DNA from: Chlamydiota bacterium
GTDB lineage: Bacteria; Chlamydiota; Chlamydiia; Chlamydiales; JAAKFR01
Length of the DNA: 64,000 bases
Reading direction: 5' to 3'
Assembly (NCBI GenBank): GCA_021772465.1
Contig: JAJFLX010000012.1
Coordinates: 65,404 to 129,403 of the forward strand
In this document: piece by piece, positions 22,006 through 26,500 of the stretch
Numbering within the stretch: the first letter of the stretch is position 1
Layout of the letters: the number at the start of each line of letters is the position of its first letter
Made by a program: the position numbers and the translations under genes
The notes under the pieces: model-generated
What the model was told of the DNA's origin: nothing
Databases searched by the model: none
The model's input: only the letters and a program-made list of their open reading frames with translations

Positions 22006-22191
22006 TTATACAGCAGCCTTTTGAAATGAGAGGGTCAGTAATTTCGAGACCCCCTTCTCTTCCATCGAGACACCCAAAAGCAATTCCGCTATCGGCATCG
22101 TCTTCTTGTTATGCGTAACAATAATAAATTGCGTCCTCTCTACAAACTGTTTGAGCACCTCAGTGAATCGCCCAATATTCGTGTCATCGAG
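22006..22191 (-). pseudogene. Detached, diverged copy of the smc 3' end (last 61 codons plus stop)
   Basis: Reverse complement translates in frame as LDDTNIGRFTEVLKQFVERTQFIIVTHNKKTMPIAELLLGVSMEEKGVSKLLTLSFQKAAV*. The functional smc end reads ...VNKTQ...TMSIA...SFQQSAMSI*. Many nucleotide differences are synonymous. Confidence 0.85.
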
Positions 22192-22258
22192 ACCCCTAAA
22201 AGCAATTCCGCTATCGACATCGTCTTCTTGTTATGCGTGACAATGATAAATTGCGTCT
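22185..22258 (-). repeat. Perfect 74-bp copy of smc 23607-23680
   Basis: The string catcgagacccctaaaagcaattccgctatcgacatcgtcttcttgttatgcgtgacaatgataaattgcgtct is identical at both places. It abuts the diverged copy through a shared CATCGAG. Confidence 0.85.
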
Positions 22259-22286
22259 AAAAGAAAAAACAGGCAAGGGGTCACCT

Positions 22287-23349
22287 TTACTTATCTGATT
22301 CTCCTTTAACAGAACTATCTCCTAATCTTTTGCGGGCATGTGTGATAGCCTTTACGAGCTTTTCACGTAAAACTTCTTTAGGAGGAAGTACGGTTAAATA
22401 TTCGGCAACGTGGATACCAGATTGATCGAGCTCGAGGAGTTCGATCCGTTCTTGTTTTTTTCCTGCACAGAGGATGAGCCCGATTGGGGATTCTTCTCCA
22501 GTTCGTCGTTCGTATTTATCCAGCCATCTCAAGTAAAGCTCCATCTGCCCTTTGTGATCAGGCTTAAAATCACCGAGTTTGAGCTCGATTGCGACCAGTC
22601 TCTTGAGATCTCGGTGAAAAAAGAGAAGGTCTAAATGGAAATTTTCATCGTCGATCGTAATTCTTTTTTGGCGCGCAAGAAAGGTGAACCCTGTACCCAA
22701 TTCAAGGAGGAATTGCTCAAGTTCGCGCATAATGGCGCCCTCTAAATCTTTTTCGAGGTAGCGATCATCGAGGTTCAAAAACTCCAAGACATAGGGATCT
22801 CGTAAAACAAGGTTTGGTGTGAGTAAATCTTCTTCGCGGAGGTTATCTAATTCATGGCGAGCAACCTCTTTAGGCTTTCTGGAAAGTGCCGTTCGTTCAA
22901 AGAGCATCGAATCAATTTTAGCCCGCAAAGTACGAACGTTCCATTGTTCTATGCGACACATCTCGGAATAAAAATCGCGCTTCATAGGATCTTCAATAGG
23001 GAGCAATTCTACAAAATGGCTCCAACTCAATTGTCGCGTCAGCGTCGCGACAATTTGTTTGTCAGGAAATGTCTGTGCAAATTGGATCATCCTTCGCAAT
23101 CCTTTTTCTGTAAATCCCTTGCCATATTGTACCGTCAATTGTCGCGACAATTGCTCTGCCATACTCCGCTCTCTCCTTATTCAAAATTTCTCTATAAATT
23201 CGATCTCCAAGATGCCAATTAAGGAGGGAGAGGGTAGAGTTAATTGTCGAAGCGACCGAGGCTTGTGCTTGGTCGATCATTTTTCTCAGCTCCCGCACAA
23301 GGCTTTCTACTTGAACTTCTAAGGCTGGCTCTCGATGTTGCACTGCCAT
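22287..23349 (-). pseudogene. YhcG/DUF1016-family PD-(D/E)XK nuclease, frameshifted
   Basis: Two overlapping ORFs (23349..23062 and 23162..22287) together cover the family. The N-part runs ...NWHLGDRIYREILNKERAEYG and the C-part runs AEQLSRQLTVQYGKGFTEKGLRRM...HLDLLFFH...VAIELKLG (nuclease core). The frames switch near 23158-23162. Confidence 0.7.
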
Positions 23350-23543
23350 GATTTTTCTCCTTTTGAGGATTTGCTCCGAAATTTGATCGCTAAAGTTCTG
23401 ATCACTTGTACATCGATGTGGGAGTATTTGAGAAGCCTATTCAATATAAGGTGTCTTGTGGCGCATAGCGATGAAATCTATTTTTAGTTTAGCGTATATT
23501 GGCGCCTATTGCATACACACTAGGTCACGAAACTGACTGGGAG

Positions 23544-26500
23544 CTAAATTGACATAGCAGATTGTTGAAATGAGAGAGTCAGCAACTTCGAGACCCCCTT
23601 CTCCTCCATCGAGACCCCTAAAAGCAATTCCGCTATCGACATCGTCTTCTTGTTATGCGTGACAATGATAAATTGCGTCTTATTCACAAACTGCTTGAGC
23701 ACCTCAGTGAATCGCCCAATATTTGTGTCATCGAGCGGGGCGTCCACCTCATCGAGAATGCAAAAAGGAGCAGGGCGAACCTCAAAAATAGAAAAAAGAA
23801 GGGCAAGCGCTGTCAAACATTTCTCCCCGCCCGAGAGAAGCGAGATCGATCGCATCTGCTTTCCAGGAGGCTTAGCCGTGATCTCAATCCCAGCTTCTAA
23901 AACATCAGGACTCTCTGTAAAAGTGAGATTCGCCTCGCCTCCATCAAAAAGAAGGGCAAAATTTCTCTGAAAATGGGAACGAATCGCCTCAAAAGTCTCT
24001 TTAAACTGGCTGCGACTCTGCTTATCAAGAGCCTGAATCACCTGCTCAAGATCACGCTTGGAACTCTCTAAATCGTCGAGCTGCTCTTGGATCTCATTAA
24101 AACGATCCATCTGCTCTTGGTAGGTGTCGATCGCCGCGAGATTGACACTGCCCGACTGCTCAACAGCAACCCGCAGTCGCCGAACTTCACGCTCAGCTGA
24201 CTCCTCATCACTTAGAGCGCTGCAATCAAAATTCTCCCACTGATCACAAGAGAGGTGGTGCCTCTCTCTGAGCTCTTGCTCTATCGATCTGCGGTGTGAA
24301 TTCTCTTCGGCAAGCCCTATCTCGAGCTTGTGGAAGTGTTGTTCGATCTCCCGCTTCTCTTGACGCAATTTTTTAGTAGCCTCAGCTAGCGCCTCACACT
24401 CCATCTCCAAATCGCTCAAAGCTCCATCCGCTGAGCTGGTATCAGCTCTCTCCTCTTCAAGTCTTTGAGTGGCCCTCTCGATCTCTGCTTCGATAGATCC
24501 CAGACTCTTTTCGATCTCAACAAGCTCTTCTAAACCTTGTGTTTGAGCGCGAGAGAGCTGCTCTAGCAAACTCTTACGTTCTTTAATCTGCGCACTTGCT
24601 CGATCGAGAGCCTGCCTCTTTTGCTGATAGTCCGAAGAGGCGAGTTGAAAACGCCCCTGAAAAGCCTGCCAAGTTTTTAAATCTTCAGCCAATGCAAGCT
24701 CTTTTTTTTCAACAGCAGCTTCTTTGTTTTGACACTCAACAAGCAGCTCTTTAGAAATCGCTTCTCTTTTTTCATACTCGAGCTCTACTTCTTGCGTTTC
24801 GGGCTGACTTGCCAAAAGCTTTTGAAGCTTTTGAAGCGCCTTTTCACCCCTCTCAAGGTCAACGCGCGCCCTTTGAAGCACCACATTGATTTGCATGAGT
24901 CCCATCTCCTGGCGACGCCATCTCTCTGAGAGCACGCGGTGCTCCTCGTAGAGTTTTTCATGTAAAGCGTTTTGCTTTTCGAGTTTTTTTTCGGCCTGGG
25001 CAAGCTGTTGTCTGATTTCAATAAGCTGCACTTCGAGAGCATGAATTTCAGCTTCGCGTAAGAAAGGGTCTCCCTCAGGGCGCTCGGAGCTGAGATGGAA
25101 GATCACGCCGTGAGTGTCGACAAAGTAGCCTTCATCGGTGAACGCCTCTGTACACTGTTTTCGAGCCGCTTCGAGATTTGGCGCTCTTTCGACCCCTTTA
25201 AGAAGGGCCTTAACCTTTGACTTCAATACTAAGGAGAAATCACTCCACCCATTGGATCTCGCGAGCTGCAAGGCCTCTTTTAATGTTTTTTCGCAGGAGG
25301 CCACGAGCGTCTGAGCATAGAAGTGGCGCGCTTTAGCAAACTCAGGACGCTCAAAGGTGAGCGCTTCACTGAGAGGCTTAAGACCCGAATCGATCGCCTG
25401 AAGTAATCGCTTGGCTCCCTTTGAAAACCCTTCATGAGAGAGTTTCAAGTGCGTGAGAGCCTGCTTGCGAGCTTCGAGCTCGGTGAGCTTTCCCACCCAT
25501 TCTCTCTTCACCTTTTCGAGGTCTTGGCTCTTCTCTTTGCAAGTTTCGAGCGCCTTCTCTGCACTGTCTCCGTCCGATTTTAATGCGTCGATCACACGAA
25601 CCTCTTTTTCTGCCTCACGCTTTTTTTCACTGATCTCAACTTGGAGATCTCGCCCCGCTGCAGTTTGCGACTCGATTTGCATCTCAAGAGCCTCACGCTG
25701 CGATTTACTCTCCTGAGCTAAAGTTTGCAAATGACGCTCTTTCTCAAGTGAAGCGAGATGATTTGCTCGCATCTTTTTGAGTTCCAAACGCAAGCCCTCT
25801 ACCTCTCGAGCGCTTGTATCGTAACGCTCTCTCTCTTGCTCGAGAGCTTCTTGCGCTGCCTCTTTCTTATGCTCTGCGCTCGCATACTCGCTCTGGCACT
25901 CTTTTAGAACTAAATCGAGATCTTTGAGCTCTTTTTCTATATGGCAACGCTCTTCAGCATGCCGCTTATTTTTTACCTCGAGCTCCCGTTGTTGCTCGCA
26001 CTTTTGAGCCTTTTCTGATTGAAGAATTTTTACCTCAGTCTCGGCCCTTTGAAACGTCCGCTCTTTGGCTTTGGCCTCTTCTTGCAAGGCACGCATTTGC
26101 TGATGCTTCGCCTCAAAGTTTGTCTCAACCGCTATAAGGCGGTGATCTGTCTCAGCAAGCTGCTCGCTAAGTGTTGTGGACTCGGCCTGAGCCTTCGCAC
26201 TCTTTTGGATTAAGGTGCGAAGTTTTGAGATGAGAAGGGCTTTTTCAAGCTCCTCGAGCCGTTTTTTATTCTCCTGAAAACTTTTCGCTTGAACGGCTTG
26301 ACGTTTGAGCTGCTTTGTTTGCCGCTCGACTTCGAGGTGGAGATCATGAATCCGCGTGTAGTTCTCGCTGACAGATGCTAAACGACGAAGTGTCTCCTTT
26401 TTTCTTTGCAAAAAACGTCCAATACCTGCCGCTTCATCAAAAAGAGTGCGCCTCTCTTTAGGAGCGAGGTGAATCACCTGATCGAGTTTCCCTTGTTCAA

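Follow-up and report, generated by a model that had tools for sequence, protein, structure and literature searches.

The 3' end of smc recurs a short distance downstream of the intact gene in the genome of an environmental chlamydia, on the far side of a broken nuclease gene, and this arrangement raises the question of how a second, diverged end of smc came to lie between smc and its neighbour ald. The DNA belongs to a Chlamydiota bacterium (metagenome-derived assembly GCA_021772465.1, contig JAJFLX010000012.1), and the whole 64-kb stretch analysed is called the window below. Our answer, which we consider probable though by no means certain, is that the interval is a decayed integrase-yhcG island at the 3' end of smc, which imported the smc end of a donor lineage and displaced the end that we call relic A. 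The kind of event is ordinary, the target gene is unusual. The answer draws on three copies of the smc end, an integrase remnant, an insertion relative to the empty site of relatives, the substitution pattern between the copies and the family context of the island. The features of the locus are the following, in gene order:

23544 to 26921, minus strand: live smc, an ORF of 1125 aa in the ORF list, with PF02463 SMC_N on the C-terminal 318 aa and C-terminal motifs that align with those of relatives.
23549 to 23735, minus strand: live copy of the repeated smc 3' end, the last ~62 codons, identical to 22005-22191 at 166/187 positions.
23729 to 23735, minus strand: first CTCGATG, the start of the live repeated smc end.
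23607 to 23680, minus strand: left 74-nt perfect repeat in live smc (Y plus the second CTCGATG), encoding TQFIIVTHNKKTMSIAELLLGVSM; 74/74 against 22185-22258.
23463 to 23543, minus strand: spacer of ~80 nt from the smc stop to the integrase remnant, matching itself alone in blastn.
23349 to 23462, minus strand: tyrosine integrase remnant, the last 38 codons, from tblastn, blastn and three-frame translation.
22287 to 23349, minus strand: disrupted gene of a YhcG/DUF1016 nuclease of the PD-(D/E)XK type (PF17761 and PF06250; PADLOC PDC-S02).
22259 to 22286, minus strand: 28-nt T-rich spacer from the nuclease stop to copy B, read from the sequence and without similarity to smc.
22185 to 22258, minus strand: copy B, the right 74-nt perfect repeat, attR-like; 74/74 against live 23607-23680.
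22185 to 22191, minus strand: CTCGATG that ends copy B and forms the first 7 nt of relic A.
22005 to 22191, minus strand: relic A, a diverged and probably displaced smc 3' end of 61 codons with its TAA at 22006-22008.
21844 to 22004, minus strand: spacer of ~160 nt from the relic A stop to the ald start.
20731 to 21843, minus strand: ald, alanine dehydrogenase (Pfam AlaDh_PNT_N and AlaDh_PNT_C).

Relic A aligns with the live smc end in the same orientation, in frame and without gaps, at 89% nucleotide identity. Although outside every long ORF of the ORF list, it still translates in frame as LDDTNIGRFTEVLKQFVERTQFIIVTHNKKTMPIAELLLGVSMEEKGVSKLLTLSFQKAAV followed by the stop, while the live smc product terminates in SFQQSAMSI. 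Specifically, three internal residues differ between the live end and relic A (N>E, K>R and S>P), in addition to the tail, and the S>P change is unique to relic A, this position being occupied by S or A in 8 out of 8 relatives. Nei-Gojobori counts over 57-61 codons gave 11-12.5 synonymous and 4-7.5 non-synonymous differences, with dS of about 0.36-0.40 and Ka/Ks of 0.08-0.14. The synonymous excess is clear (Fisher p = 1e-5 to 1e-4), and the data reject a model in which all divergence followed a duplication within the genome and the relic drifted under neutrality (omega about 0.5; p about 0.003-0.02). Since almost all of the 21 differences over 187 nt are synonymous, the live end and relic A evolved separately, each as a functional end of smc in one of two related lineages. 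An earlier sequence-only reading of this DNA had proposed this origin, on the basis of an in-frame relic with three internal changes, another tail and many synonymous differences, and had suggested a computed alignment with Ka/Ks as a check; the alignment bears out the description and the enrichment holds. The same reading had counted the smc end as present twice, which is correct for these two copies, but it missed a third one.

This third copy, copy B, reproduces 74 nt of the live end at 100% identity, and in 100 shuffles not even one 74-mer match arose by chance. The product of the 74-nt block, TQFIIVTHNKKTMSIAELLLGVSM, is the conserved VTHNK stretch of the smc product. Direct repeats derived from smc are thereby present at both ends of the island, and the smc ORF itself is complete, with a conserved C-terminus. 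Copy B meets relic A through a common CTCGATG heptamer, which occurs twice in the smc end, with a register shift of 122 nt at the junction. The 74-nt block of the copy B/live type is 92% identical to that of relic A, the longest identical run between relic A and the live copy is shorter than 31 nt, and in the 48 nt that lead from the first CTCGATG to the block the live end and relic A differ at 6 positions. These upstream differences, together with the out-of-register joint between copy B and relic A, imply that a single crossover cannot give the layout; the three-copy arrangement takes more than one simple integration.

The interval had been described as devoid of an integrase, and this proved incorrect. 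Positions 23462-23349, directly upstream of the YhcG gene and in the position and orientation found in intact relatives, hold the remnant of a tyrosine integrase gene. It corresponds to integrase residues 319-356, with about 318 of the 356 codons missing, and has a Y-x-H motif at the place expected for the catalytic tyrosine; the remnant carries a frameshift, its stop is mutated from TGA to TGG, and the junction kept at the locus reads KGEK(S) followed by the nuclease ATG. We obtained matches to the window by tblastn with the integrases of four chlamydial island loci (L009, L012, L016 and L018; E = 6e-4 to 1e-2), and by blastn of the remnant with the integrase 3' ends of L008-L013, L018 and L025 (76-80% over 72-87 nt, E = 1e-7 to 1e-11) and of L019 (68% over 109 nt, E = 5e-8). 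A second integrase-like sequence was not found in the 64-kb window. The element is now immobile.

The nuclease domains score above the Pfam cut-offs (PF06250, 157.9 bits; PF17761, 102 bits), and PADLOC assigns the protein to PDC-S02 (E = 9e-112). The frameshift recognised earlier in this gene was located, by alignment with four nuclease homologues, to an 11-nt deletion between 23149 and 23150, lying between two TGTCGCGAC direct repeats, and the frame of about 350 aa, if uninterrupted, is split into ORFs of 95 aa and 291 aa. An independent Logan contig (SRR15505517) has the same Y...nuclease...Y' sequence, including this deletion. Many chlamydial homologues share 74-87% identity with the nuclease, while the best protein-database match covering most of the C-terminal 318 aa of smc is 62% identical. 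In addition, the GC content is ~0.43 over 21900-23700, compared to 0.47-0.52 in the flanks. The low GC and the identity of the nuclease to its homologues, above that of smc, together support a foreign origin of the interval.

Evidence for an empty site came from the relatives. In the five closest metagenome relatives carrying ald (L094, L095, L096, L098 and L101), as well as in an NCBI assembly (L175), smc is immediately followed by ald, the smc stop overlaps the ald ATG in L094, L095 and L101, and no duplication or insert was found between the two genes in any of these genomes. It follows from this contiguity that the 1.5-1.7 kb found here is inserted DNA, not a local tandem duplication, and ald is the ancestral downstream neighbour of smc. 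The comparison with related smc-ald loci had been proposed in advance as a check; a local tandem duplication without foreign DNA was not seen, and the interpretation of the interval as a decayed remnant agrees with the integrase fossil, the broken nuclease and the empty site. The gap between the two genes is 0-17 nt in the relatives, against ~160 nt between relic A and ald, and this spacer resembles neither the DNA that follows the live smc stop nor any of the loci retrieved. Given a spacer with no counterpart in the relatives, relic A may not be a pristine native end.

The family context is that of the chlamydial integrase-yhcG islands, a family delineated in this analysis. A tRNA-Met, tRNA-Lys or tRNA-Thr gene lies upstream of the integrase-yhcG pair in at least 19 loci, the distance from the tRNA end to the integrase ATG is 150-166 nt in 10 of the 11 loci measured, and integrase and yhcG overlap by 4 nt (ATGA) in 14 out of 15 chlamydial loci with an intact integrase. 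The attR direct repeats of L027 (47 nt) and L020 (56 nt) both begin at the anticodon stem. Loci L008 and L009 have 4498 nt in common at 99.98% identity, starting exactly from the anticodon stem, and their upstream flanks differ, which indicates that this element type was mobile recently and can occupy a non-tRNA context. In three loci (L015, L027 and L029) the integrase is decayed and the nuclease kept, the same end state as at smc, and L012 carries stacked partial tRNA copies beside the same element type.

The nearest relatives of the remnant integrase sit at tRNA-Met. The smc locus departs from the family in that the upstream gene is smc, with no tRNA 150-166 nt upstream of the integrase; the window contains a tRNA-Arg gene alone, at 9412-9484. 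Among the 80 genome loci retrieved with the nuclease, smc was beside it in none and no intact smc-targeting relative was found; the smc motif was likewise found on no viral contig. Compared with the tRNA att sites, the smc end is not significantly similar (shuffle p = 0.2-0.9), and the ~80 nt following the smc stop, presumably derived from the element, gave no convincing alignment with the conserved tRNA-to-integrase spacers of the relatives.

Like the tRNA islands, which form an anticodon-loop sublocation class at tRNA-Met, tRNA-Lys and tRNA-Thr, the smc locus has a homologous, attL-proximal integrase-yhcG pair, the order target gene, integrase, nuclease, and a direct repeat that starts inside the target and runs to its 3' end. 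Unlike them, it has a protein-coding target, a repeat of 74 nt instead of 47-56 nt, and a target end that does not resemble the att sites in tRNA genes. In E. coli and Klebsiella, e14, phage 21 and related elements target the 3' end of a protein-coding gene, icd. As in the smc island, a tyrosine integrase acts there on the 3' end of a conserved gene, which a replacement fragment keeps intact; the repeat block measures at least 100 nt, and the displaced original end is a pseudo-copy differing mainly at synonymous sites, as observed here. The smc locus differs from them in its target, in being a ~1.4-kb fossil without a working integrase, in its three end copies instead of two and in the out-of-register joint. 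It has been described for such elements how an attP-borne gene fragment restores the target, how protein-coding targets, icd for one, come with long repeat blocks, how the elements form tandem arrays, and how icd-targeting integrases differ in preference within these arrays (PMC7192596).

On the reading that we prefer, the island would be of a type carrying, at its attL end, a tyrosine integrase gene and then a yhcG nuclease gene, usually translationally coupled. In the tRNA islands the attP holds the 3' part of the tRNA gene from the anticodon stem, so that integration restores the gene and displaces the old 3' part. By the same logic, the replacement end delivered to smc would comprise at least the 74-nt block together with the ~20 codons that follow it and the stop codon. 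The att-type direct repeat of the last event would then be the perfect repeat of 74 nt (23607-23680 and 22185-22258), and the attL side of the island would lie in the 3' end of live smc, while relic A would be the recipient lineage's own smc end, left beside ald.

We infer how the events followed one another, what kind of joint the CTCGATG marks and which of the copies is native. Judging from the differences in the 48 nt and from the out-of-register joint of copy B with relic A, along the most likely path the island would have integrated normally in a related donor lineage, and the island-bearing smc end would subsequently have recombined into the present lineage. The left side of this second event would be a homologous exchange inside smc, and the right joint would have formed between the CTCGATG ending the donor attR and the upstream CTCGATG of the recipient smc, through microhomology-mediated illegitimate joining or through the integrase acting on a 7-bp overlap. 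Later decay would have deleted ~318 integrase codons, removed the integrase stop and any cargo, and produced the 11-nt deletion in the nuclease gene by slippage. The sequence-only reading is supported in its incoming element, which carried its own smc-like end and displaced the resident one, but not in its assumption of a single simple integration.

Homology-facilitated illegitimate recombination occurs in naturally transformable bacteria such as Acinetobacter and Streptococcus pneumoniae. In this process homology anchors one end and a microhomology of 3-10 bp joins the other, which would give the Y-CTCGATG-X'' joint exactly; it is a process not demonstrated in environmental Chlamydiae, and one junction suggests it here.

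A possible, though in our judgement less likely, course is that of serial integrations in the same lineage followed by a deletion. An older element with a longer smc fragment, starting from the first CTCGATG, would have displaced the native end, now relic A; a second element, of the integrase-yhcG type, would have entered this new end where its 74-nt block begins; and a CTCGATG microhomology deletion, from the second attR to relic A, would have removed the first element with its smc tail. Such a course accounts for the differences between the live end and relic A in the 48 nt upstream of the block. It is also in keeping with the stacked partial tRNA copies of L012, with the at least two other deletions at the locus (the 5' part of the integrase and 11 nt in yhcG), and with the frequent occurrence, at att sites, of tandem arrays and of recombination inside them (PMC7192596). 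However, it requires two elements whose left boundaries differ yet fall within 190 nt, the first of these elements having left no trace, and a precise out-of-register deletion, whereas the 74-nt blocks, at 92% identity, would offer homologous recombination an easier route to a deletion, and this would give another joint.

It is improbable that the layout is an artefact in which strains with and without the island were merged during assembly, relic A being the smc end of the second strain. The assembly is metagenome-derived, and the joint of copy B with relic A is known from this one assembly: the Logan contig spans Y, the nuclease gene and the first 30 nt of copy B, where it ends, and its 1452 nt (the 1422-nt repeat period plus 30) resemble a cycle in a k=31 graph. 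Nevertheless, the joint has 7 common nucleotides and is 122 nt out of register, which a k-mer or overlap assembler could not make; identical runs between the live copy and relic A stay below 31 nt; and the window carries relic A and ald in one unbroken stretch.

We give very little credit to nuclease-driven homing, in which YhcG would have cut the smc end and its gene would have been copied in from a donor allele by double-strand-break repair. The nuclease is a PD-(D/E)XK enzyme, highly conserved and widely transferred between lineages, as such a scenario would have it; but homing leaves no direct repeats of the target, and target duplications are found here together with an integrase remnant. 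Moreover, a tyrosine integrase accompanies the gene in the relatives, often beside tRNA genes and with classical att repeats in two cases, and there is no evidence of sequence-specific cleavage for the YhcG family.

It is highly improbable that the smc end was duplicated locally, in tandem or as a segment, with the nuclease gene as an old resident and no foreign DNA. The copies are indeed direct repeats in the same orientation, but the contiguity of smc and ald in the relatives, with no nuclease between them, the integrase remnant, a Ka/Ks of 0.08-0.14 incompatible with divergence within the genome, and a nuclease far closer to distant chlamydial homologues than smc is, all speak against it. 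Programmed switching of the smc 3' end by shufflon- or cassette-like site-specific recombination, which several alternative 3' ends lying close together and the enrichment of DUF1016 genes beside programmed-inversion targets (PMC9881135) might evoke, is scarcely conceivable with repeats that are direct and not inverted, a destroyed recombinase gene, two ends encoding nearly the same protein and an arrangement absent from relatives.

If our preferred reading of an imported, decayed island is right, smc, an essential and highly conserved gene, is documented as an attachment site, with the stretch encoding TQFIIVTHNKK as the target; no precedent for smc in this role was found in the searchable literature. 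A chlamydial integrase lineage with its nearest relatives at tRNA-Met is likewise found at a protein-coding target. Because two smc ends at a dS of about 0.4 lie in one genome, the locus also gives direct, physical evidence that DNA has been exchanged among related environmental Chlamydiae. As for the locus itself, it is dead and serves no obvious function today. The decay of the integrase with retention of the nuclease in several Chlamydiae makes the function of YhcG more tractable.

As a joint speculation, which we regard as rather unlikely when all its parts are taken together, integrase and yhcG could form a self-contained, coupled module with the nuclease as a working partner, not a passive cargo, perhaps one that protects a site already occupied or attacks the DNA of competitors. 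The module would have spread from Chlamydiae to enterobacterial plasmids, and, by capturing a host gene fragment into attP, it could have exchanged its tRNA targets for the 3' ends of essential protein-coding genes, smc among them, giving an smc-retargeted lineage. Were all this true, what the window preserves would be no one-off accident but the first, fossil representative of a lineage specific for smc.

The integrase-yhcG operon with its 4-nt overlap is conserved from Chlamydiae to an E. coli plasmid. Such pairs lie on islands and plasmids of proteobacteria; specifically, pECO-109b of E. coli (NZ_CP026208.1) and Achromobacter sp. M1 (CP159308.1) show the same gene order and the same overlap of integrase and nuclease genes, with a nuclease 58-65% identical. 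Their integrases are 24-29% identical and P4-like, with an arm-binding domain, and hosts and cargo differ. Downstream of the proteobacterial integrase-nuclease pair lie genes for a helicase and an AAA ATPase.

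On the minus strand of the window, smc and ald are separated by an interval of about 1.5 kb, the gene order being as follows.

upstream of smc, minus strand, ribH
26921-23544, minus strand, smc
between smc and ald, the ~1.5-kb interval
21843-20731, minus strand, ald

A repeat search and a direct alignment both showed that the smc 3' end is present twice, as the sequence-only reading of this DNA had claimed: the segment 22005-22191 (minus strand, hereafter relic A) matches the live end at 23549-23735 in 166 of 187 nucleotides, ungapped and in frame. The three internal residue changes and the altered tail described by that reading are all seen in the alignment. 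By the Nei-Gojobori method, the two copies differ by 11-12.5 synonymous and 4-7.5 non-synonymous differences (dS ~0.36-0.40; Ka/Ks 0.08-0.14), and the enrichment for synonymous changes is significant (Fisher p = 1e-5 to 1e-4). A model in which all divergence post-dates a duplication within this genome, with the relic drifting neutrally, was rejected (p ~0.003-0.02). Therefore, most of the divergence arose while both copies were working smc ends, that is, in two lineages, which backs the history proposed from the sequence. The live end and relic A are mutual closest relatives (~90% nucleotide identity), each being ~66-72% identical to its nearest metagenome relatives.

A third smc-end copy, overlooked by the sequence-only reading, was found at 22185-22258 (minus strand, copy B), with 74/74 identity to live smc 23607-23680. 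Dividing the live end into successive segments X, Y and Z, with X'', Y'' and Z'' as their relic A counterparts, the layout in gene orientation reads as follows.

left part: smc [CTCGATG#1 - X (48 nt) - Y - CTCGATG#2 - Z - stop], ~80 nt, integrase remnant, yhcG
right part, after yhcG: 28 nt, [Y - CTCGATG], [X'' - Y'' - CTCGATG - Z'' - stop], ~160 nt, ald

Relic A thus begins with X'', which has 6 mismatches to X in 48 nt. The heptamer 22185-22191 is common to copy B and relic A, so that the end of the 74-nt block is fused to the relic start, out of register by 122 nt. Exact-product look-ups gave no match on record for the full smc ORF or for two small ORFs crossing this B/A joint, which is seen in one assembly only; a 7-nt out-of-register join is not something that an assembler would make. 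Separately, a 1452-nt Logan contig from SRR15505517 (L002) extends from the first base of the 74-nt block to 30 nt into its second copy. This length is one repeat period (1422 nt) plus k-1, as in a k=31 graph cycle; the shape could be trivial for a repeat-flanked segment, or a hint of a circular or tandem form.

The interval holds a yhcG nuclease gene (PF17761 and PF06250; PADLOC candidate PDC-S02), whose frameshift, already noticed from the sequence, is due to an 11-nt deletion between 23149 and 23150, between two TGTCGCGAC repeats; the same deletion is present in the independent Logan contig L002 from SRR15505517. Chlamydial homologues of the nuclease are very many, at 74-87% identity, and the best protein-database match covering most of the C-terminal 318 residues of SMC reaches only 62%. 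In homologous loci, DNA similarity to the window runs past the nuclease ATG (23349) to ~23426-23463, the added stretch matching the 3' end of their tyrosine integrase genes. Specifically, residues 319-356 of five integrases align by tblastn to 23462-23349 (ATRHLILNRLLKYSHIDVQV... against ATGHKTLAMLMHYTHMDVQV..., E = 6e-4 to 2e-2). This integrase fossil, frameshifted and with its stop codon lost, overturns the earlier statement that no integrase lies between the smc copies. The yhcG genes of the window and of L004, L006, L008 and L009 also share two conserved DNA palindromes, CAATTGTCGCGAC...GTCGCGACAATTG, 108 nt apart (23029-23055 and 23132-23161 in the window), which encode IVAT.SRQL twice; the first in the window is the site of the 11-nt slippage deletion. 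They may be either a mere by-product of the peptide repeat or also a putative DNA site.

Scanning metagenomes with the C-terminal 130 SMC residues retrieved relatives of up to 84% identity, in which the empty site sought by the sequence-only reading could be recognised. In L094, L095 and L101, smc and ald overlap at stop and start (ATGA), the two genes are 12-17 nt apart in L096 and L098, and ald also follows smc in L175, from an NCBI assembly; none of these six loci has a duplication, integrase or nuclease at the smc-ald junction. Accordingly, 22005-23543 is an insertion relative to the ancestral arrangement. Its GC content is ~0.43, lower than that of the flanks (0.47-0.52). Neither the ~80 nt that follow the smc stop (23463-23543) nor the ~160-nt stretch behind relic A showed convincing similarity to the other, to any of the loci or to the conserved tRNA-to-integrase spacers. 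Relatives have nothing comparable to the ~160-nt spacer (21844-22004) that separates the relic A stop from ald, so relic A is perhaps not a pristine native end. Judging from sequence, the stop-start overlap in L094, L095 and L101, the three closest ald-bearing relatives, would imply translational coupling, and with ~160 nt of unmatched sequence before it, ald would have to be expressed differently in this organism. An Rfam scan of 20500-24500 found no RNA family, and promoter and terminator scans gave background levels only.

Homologous integrase-yhcG loci came from two sources, look-up of exact proteins and a scan of a genome collection, the latter yielding no locus above 78% identity; the closest intact integrase is of the L006/L009 type. 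In the recovered loci, a ~356-aa tyrosine integrase gene precedes the nuclease gene on the same strand, and in 14 of the 15 chlamydial loci with an intact integrase the two genes share 4 nt (ATGA) at the integrase stop and nuclease start. In 10 of 11 loci measured, a tRNA gene in the same orientation precedes the integrase at a distance of 150-166 nt. The tRNA is tRNA-Met in 12 loci, tRNA-Lys in 5-6 and tRNA-Thr in one. The two delimited islands, L027 and L020, carry repeats of 47 nt (perfect, copies ~6 kb apart) and 56 nt (copies ~10 kb apart), respectively, spanning the tRNA from the anticodon stem to the 3' end. These chlamydial loci are integrative islands of the classical sort, with the 3' part of the targeted gene borne on attP; the general principle has been described (PMC7192596). 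The window shares with them the integrase-nuclease junction and differs in having no tRNA target.

Among these loci, L008 (2886-7383) and L009 (4726-9223) have 4498 nt in common at 99.98% identity, with different upstream flanks. The common sequence starts exactly at the tRNA-Met anticodon stem, and L008 has no tRNA 5' half upstream. This near-identity in different flanks indicates that the element type has moved recently and need not lie beside a tRNA 5' half; in L008 it either entered a secondary site or is present as an attP/tandem form.

In L015, L027 and L029 the integrase has been lost, its last codons and the nuclease being kept, a pattern of decay that suggests selection for the nuclease after the island was immobilised. 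The residues retained beside the nuclease amount to the last 10-78 codons (L015 9500-9790, L027 9670-9790, L029 9556-9789, window 23349-23462); in L015, the first 17 integrase codons are fused to the last ~33. The nuclease ORF was noted as intact where the integrase was repeatedly lost, the window copy carrying its 11-nt frameshift. The nuclease ribosome-binding site is located in the integrase 3' end. The 4-nt ATGA overlap also occurs in Achromobacter sp. M1 (L076, 8595-10861; a betaproteobacterial chromosome) and E. coli plasmid pECO-109b (L176, 3595-5858; enterobacterial, IncHI), with integrases only 24-29% identical to the chlamydial ones. Integrase and yhcG therefore look like a putative conserved two-gene module, of which we found no description.

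All these data make it probable that an integrase-yhcG island, since decayed, integrated at this locus with the smc 3' end as attachment site, bringing a new gene end with it. Every scheme that we constructed needs a joint between two CTCGATG heptamers. We tentatively regard a two-step path with a single import as the most economical. A normal integration in a related donor lineage would have produced smc-integrase-yhcG-[Y-CTCGATG-Z]; the island-bearing smc end would then have entered this lineage, its left side by homologous recombination inside smc and its right side by a CTCGATG/CTCGATG joint, which would have arisen through microhomology or through an integrase that acted on a 7-bp overlap. 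Less likely is the main alternative, a serial path in which two elements integrated here in turn and the older one was then removed by a microhomology deletion. A single simple integration cannot yield the observed layout: with an smc-like fragment starting at Y, as copy B does, live X should be native and relic A should lack X, and relic A starts with a diverged X''. Hence, the integration into smc with a replacement end proposed by the sequence-only reading stands in outline, on the empty site, the integrase fossil and the repeats, and fails as one simple event.

As for an intact counterpart, larger integrase-bearing elements with an smc-3'-like att region, as that reading had envisaged, were not encountered: no smc lay near the nuclease in 80 genome loci retrieved with it, no integrase or nuclease beside smc in 80 metagenome loci, and no viral contig had the QFIIVTHNKKTM-coding pattern. 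Two short proteins matching the SMC C-terminus (P0004, P0019), encoded on large contigs, were considered as displaced relics; they come from frameshift-split genes in an error-rich assembly. When the smc end was compared by local alignment, as a pseudo-attB, with the tRNA-Met, tRNA-Lys and tRNA-Thr att regions of relatives, scores were no better than shuffles (p = 0.2-0.9), and this idea was rejected; the smc end has no likeness to tRNA att sites that would account for the choice of target. Literature searches gave no direct precedent for smc as attB, or for an integrase-DUF1016 pairing; among the few calls labelled 'smc' in the TIGER supplement, one has a KfrA_N domain and the others are intergenic.

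By analogy, the closest textbook case would be icd-e14/phage 21, where the 3' end of a protein-coding gene receives a long replacement fragment, as at smc. There too, the displaced pseudo-end shows mainly synonymous differences. Tandem arrays and the long block of repeated icd sequence have been described (PMC7192596). Of the features of an integrative element restoring its target, the locus has an integrase (as a fossil), repeats, an intact target and an empty site; present mobility is absent. Thus, smc is an unusual target for a known event type, and the element is now a fossil. Of greater interest is the integrase-yhcG operon, which is conserved across Chlamydiae, Achromobacter and an E. 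coli IncHI plasmid and whose nuclease outlives the integrase.

Further observations concern repeats and assembly quality. L012 (4025-4700) has three tandem ~160-172-nt units upstream of an intact tRNA-Met, each opening with 19 nt from the start of that tRNA (GGGGCAATAGCTCAGTTGG) and running on into hairpin-rich sequence, with no Rfam match and a fold z-score of ~-2. In L174, L175 and L003 (chlamydial assembly GCA_036704275.1), many genes are split, including smc, ald, serS, integrase and nuclease, probably through assembly or sequencing error, and the short SMC C-terminal proteins encoded there do not represent relics. Finally, tandem repeats occur elsewhere in the window (46439-47757 and 28866-29027). 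They comprise two blocks with a 99-nt unit, whose copies are 61-71% identical, and a single tandem duplication of 81 nt (96%), and are unrelated to the smc island.
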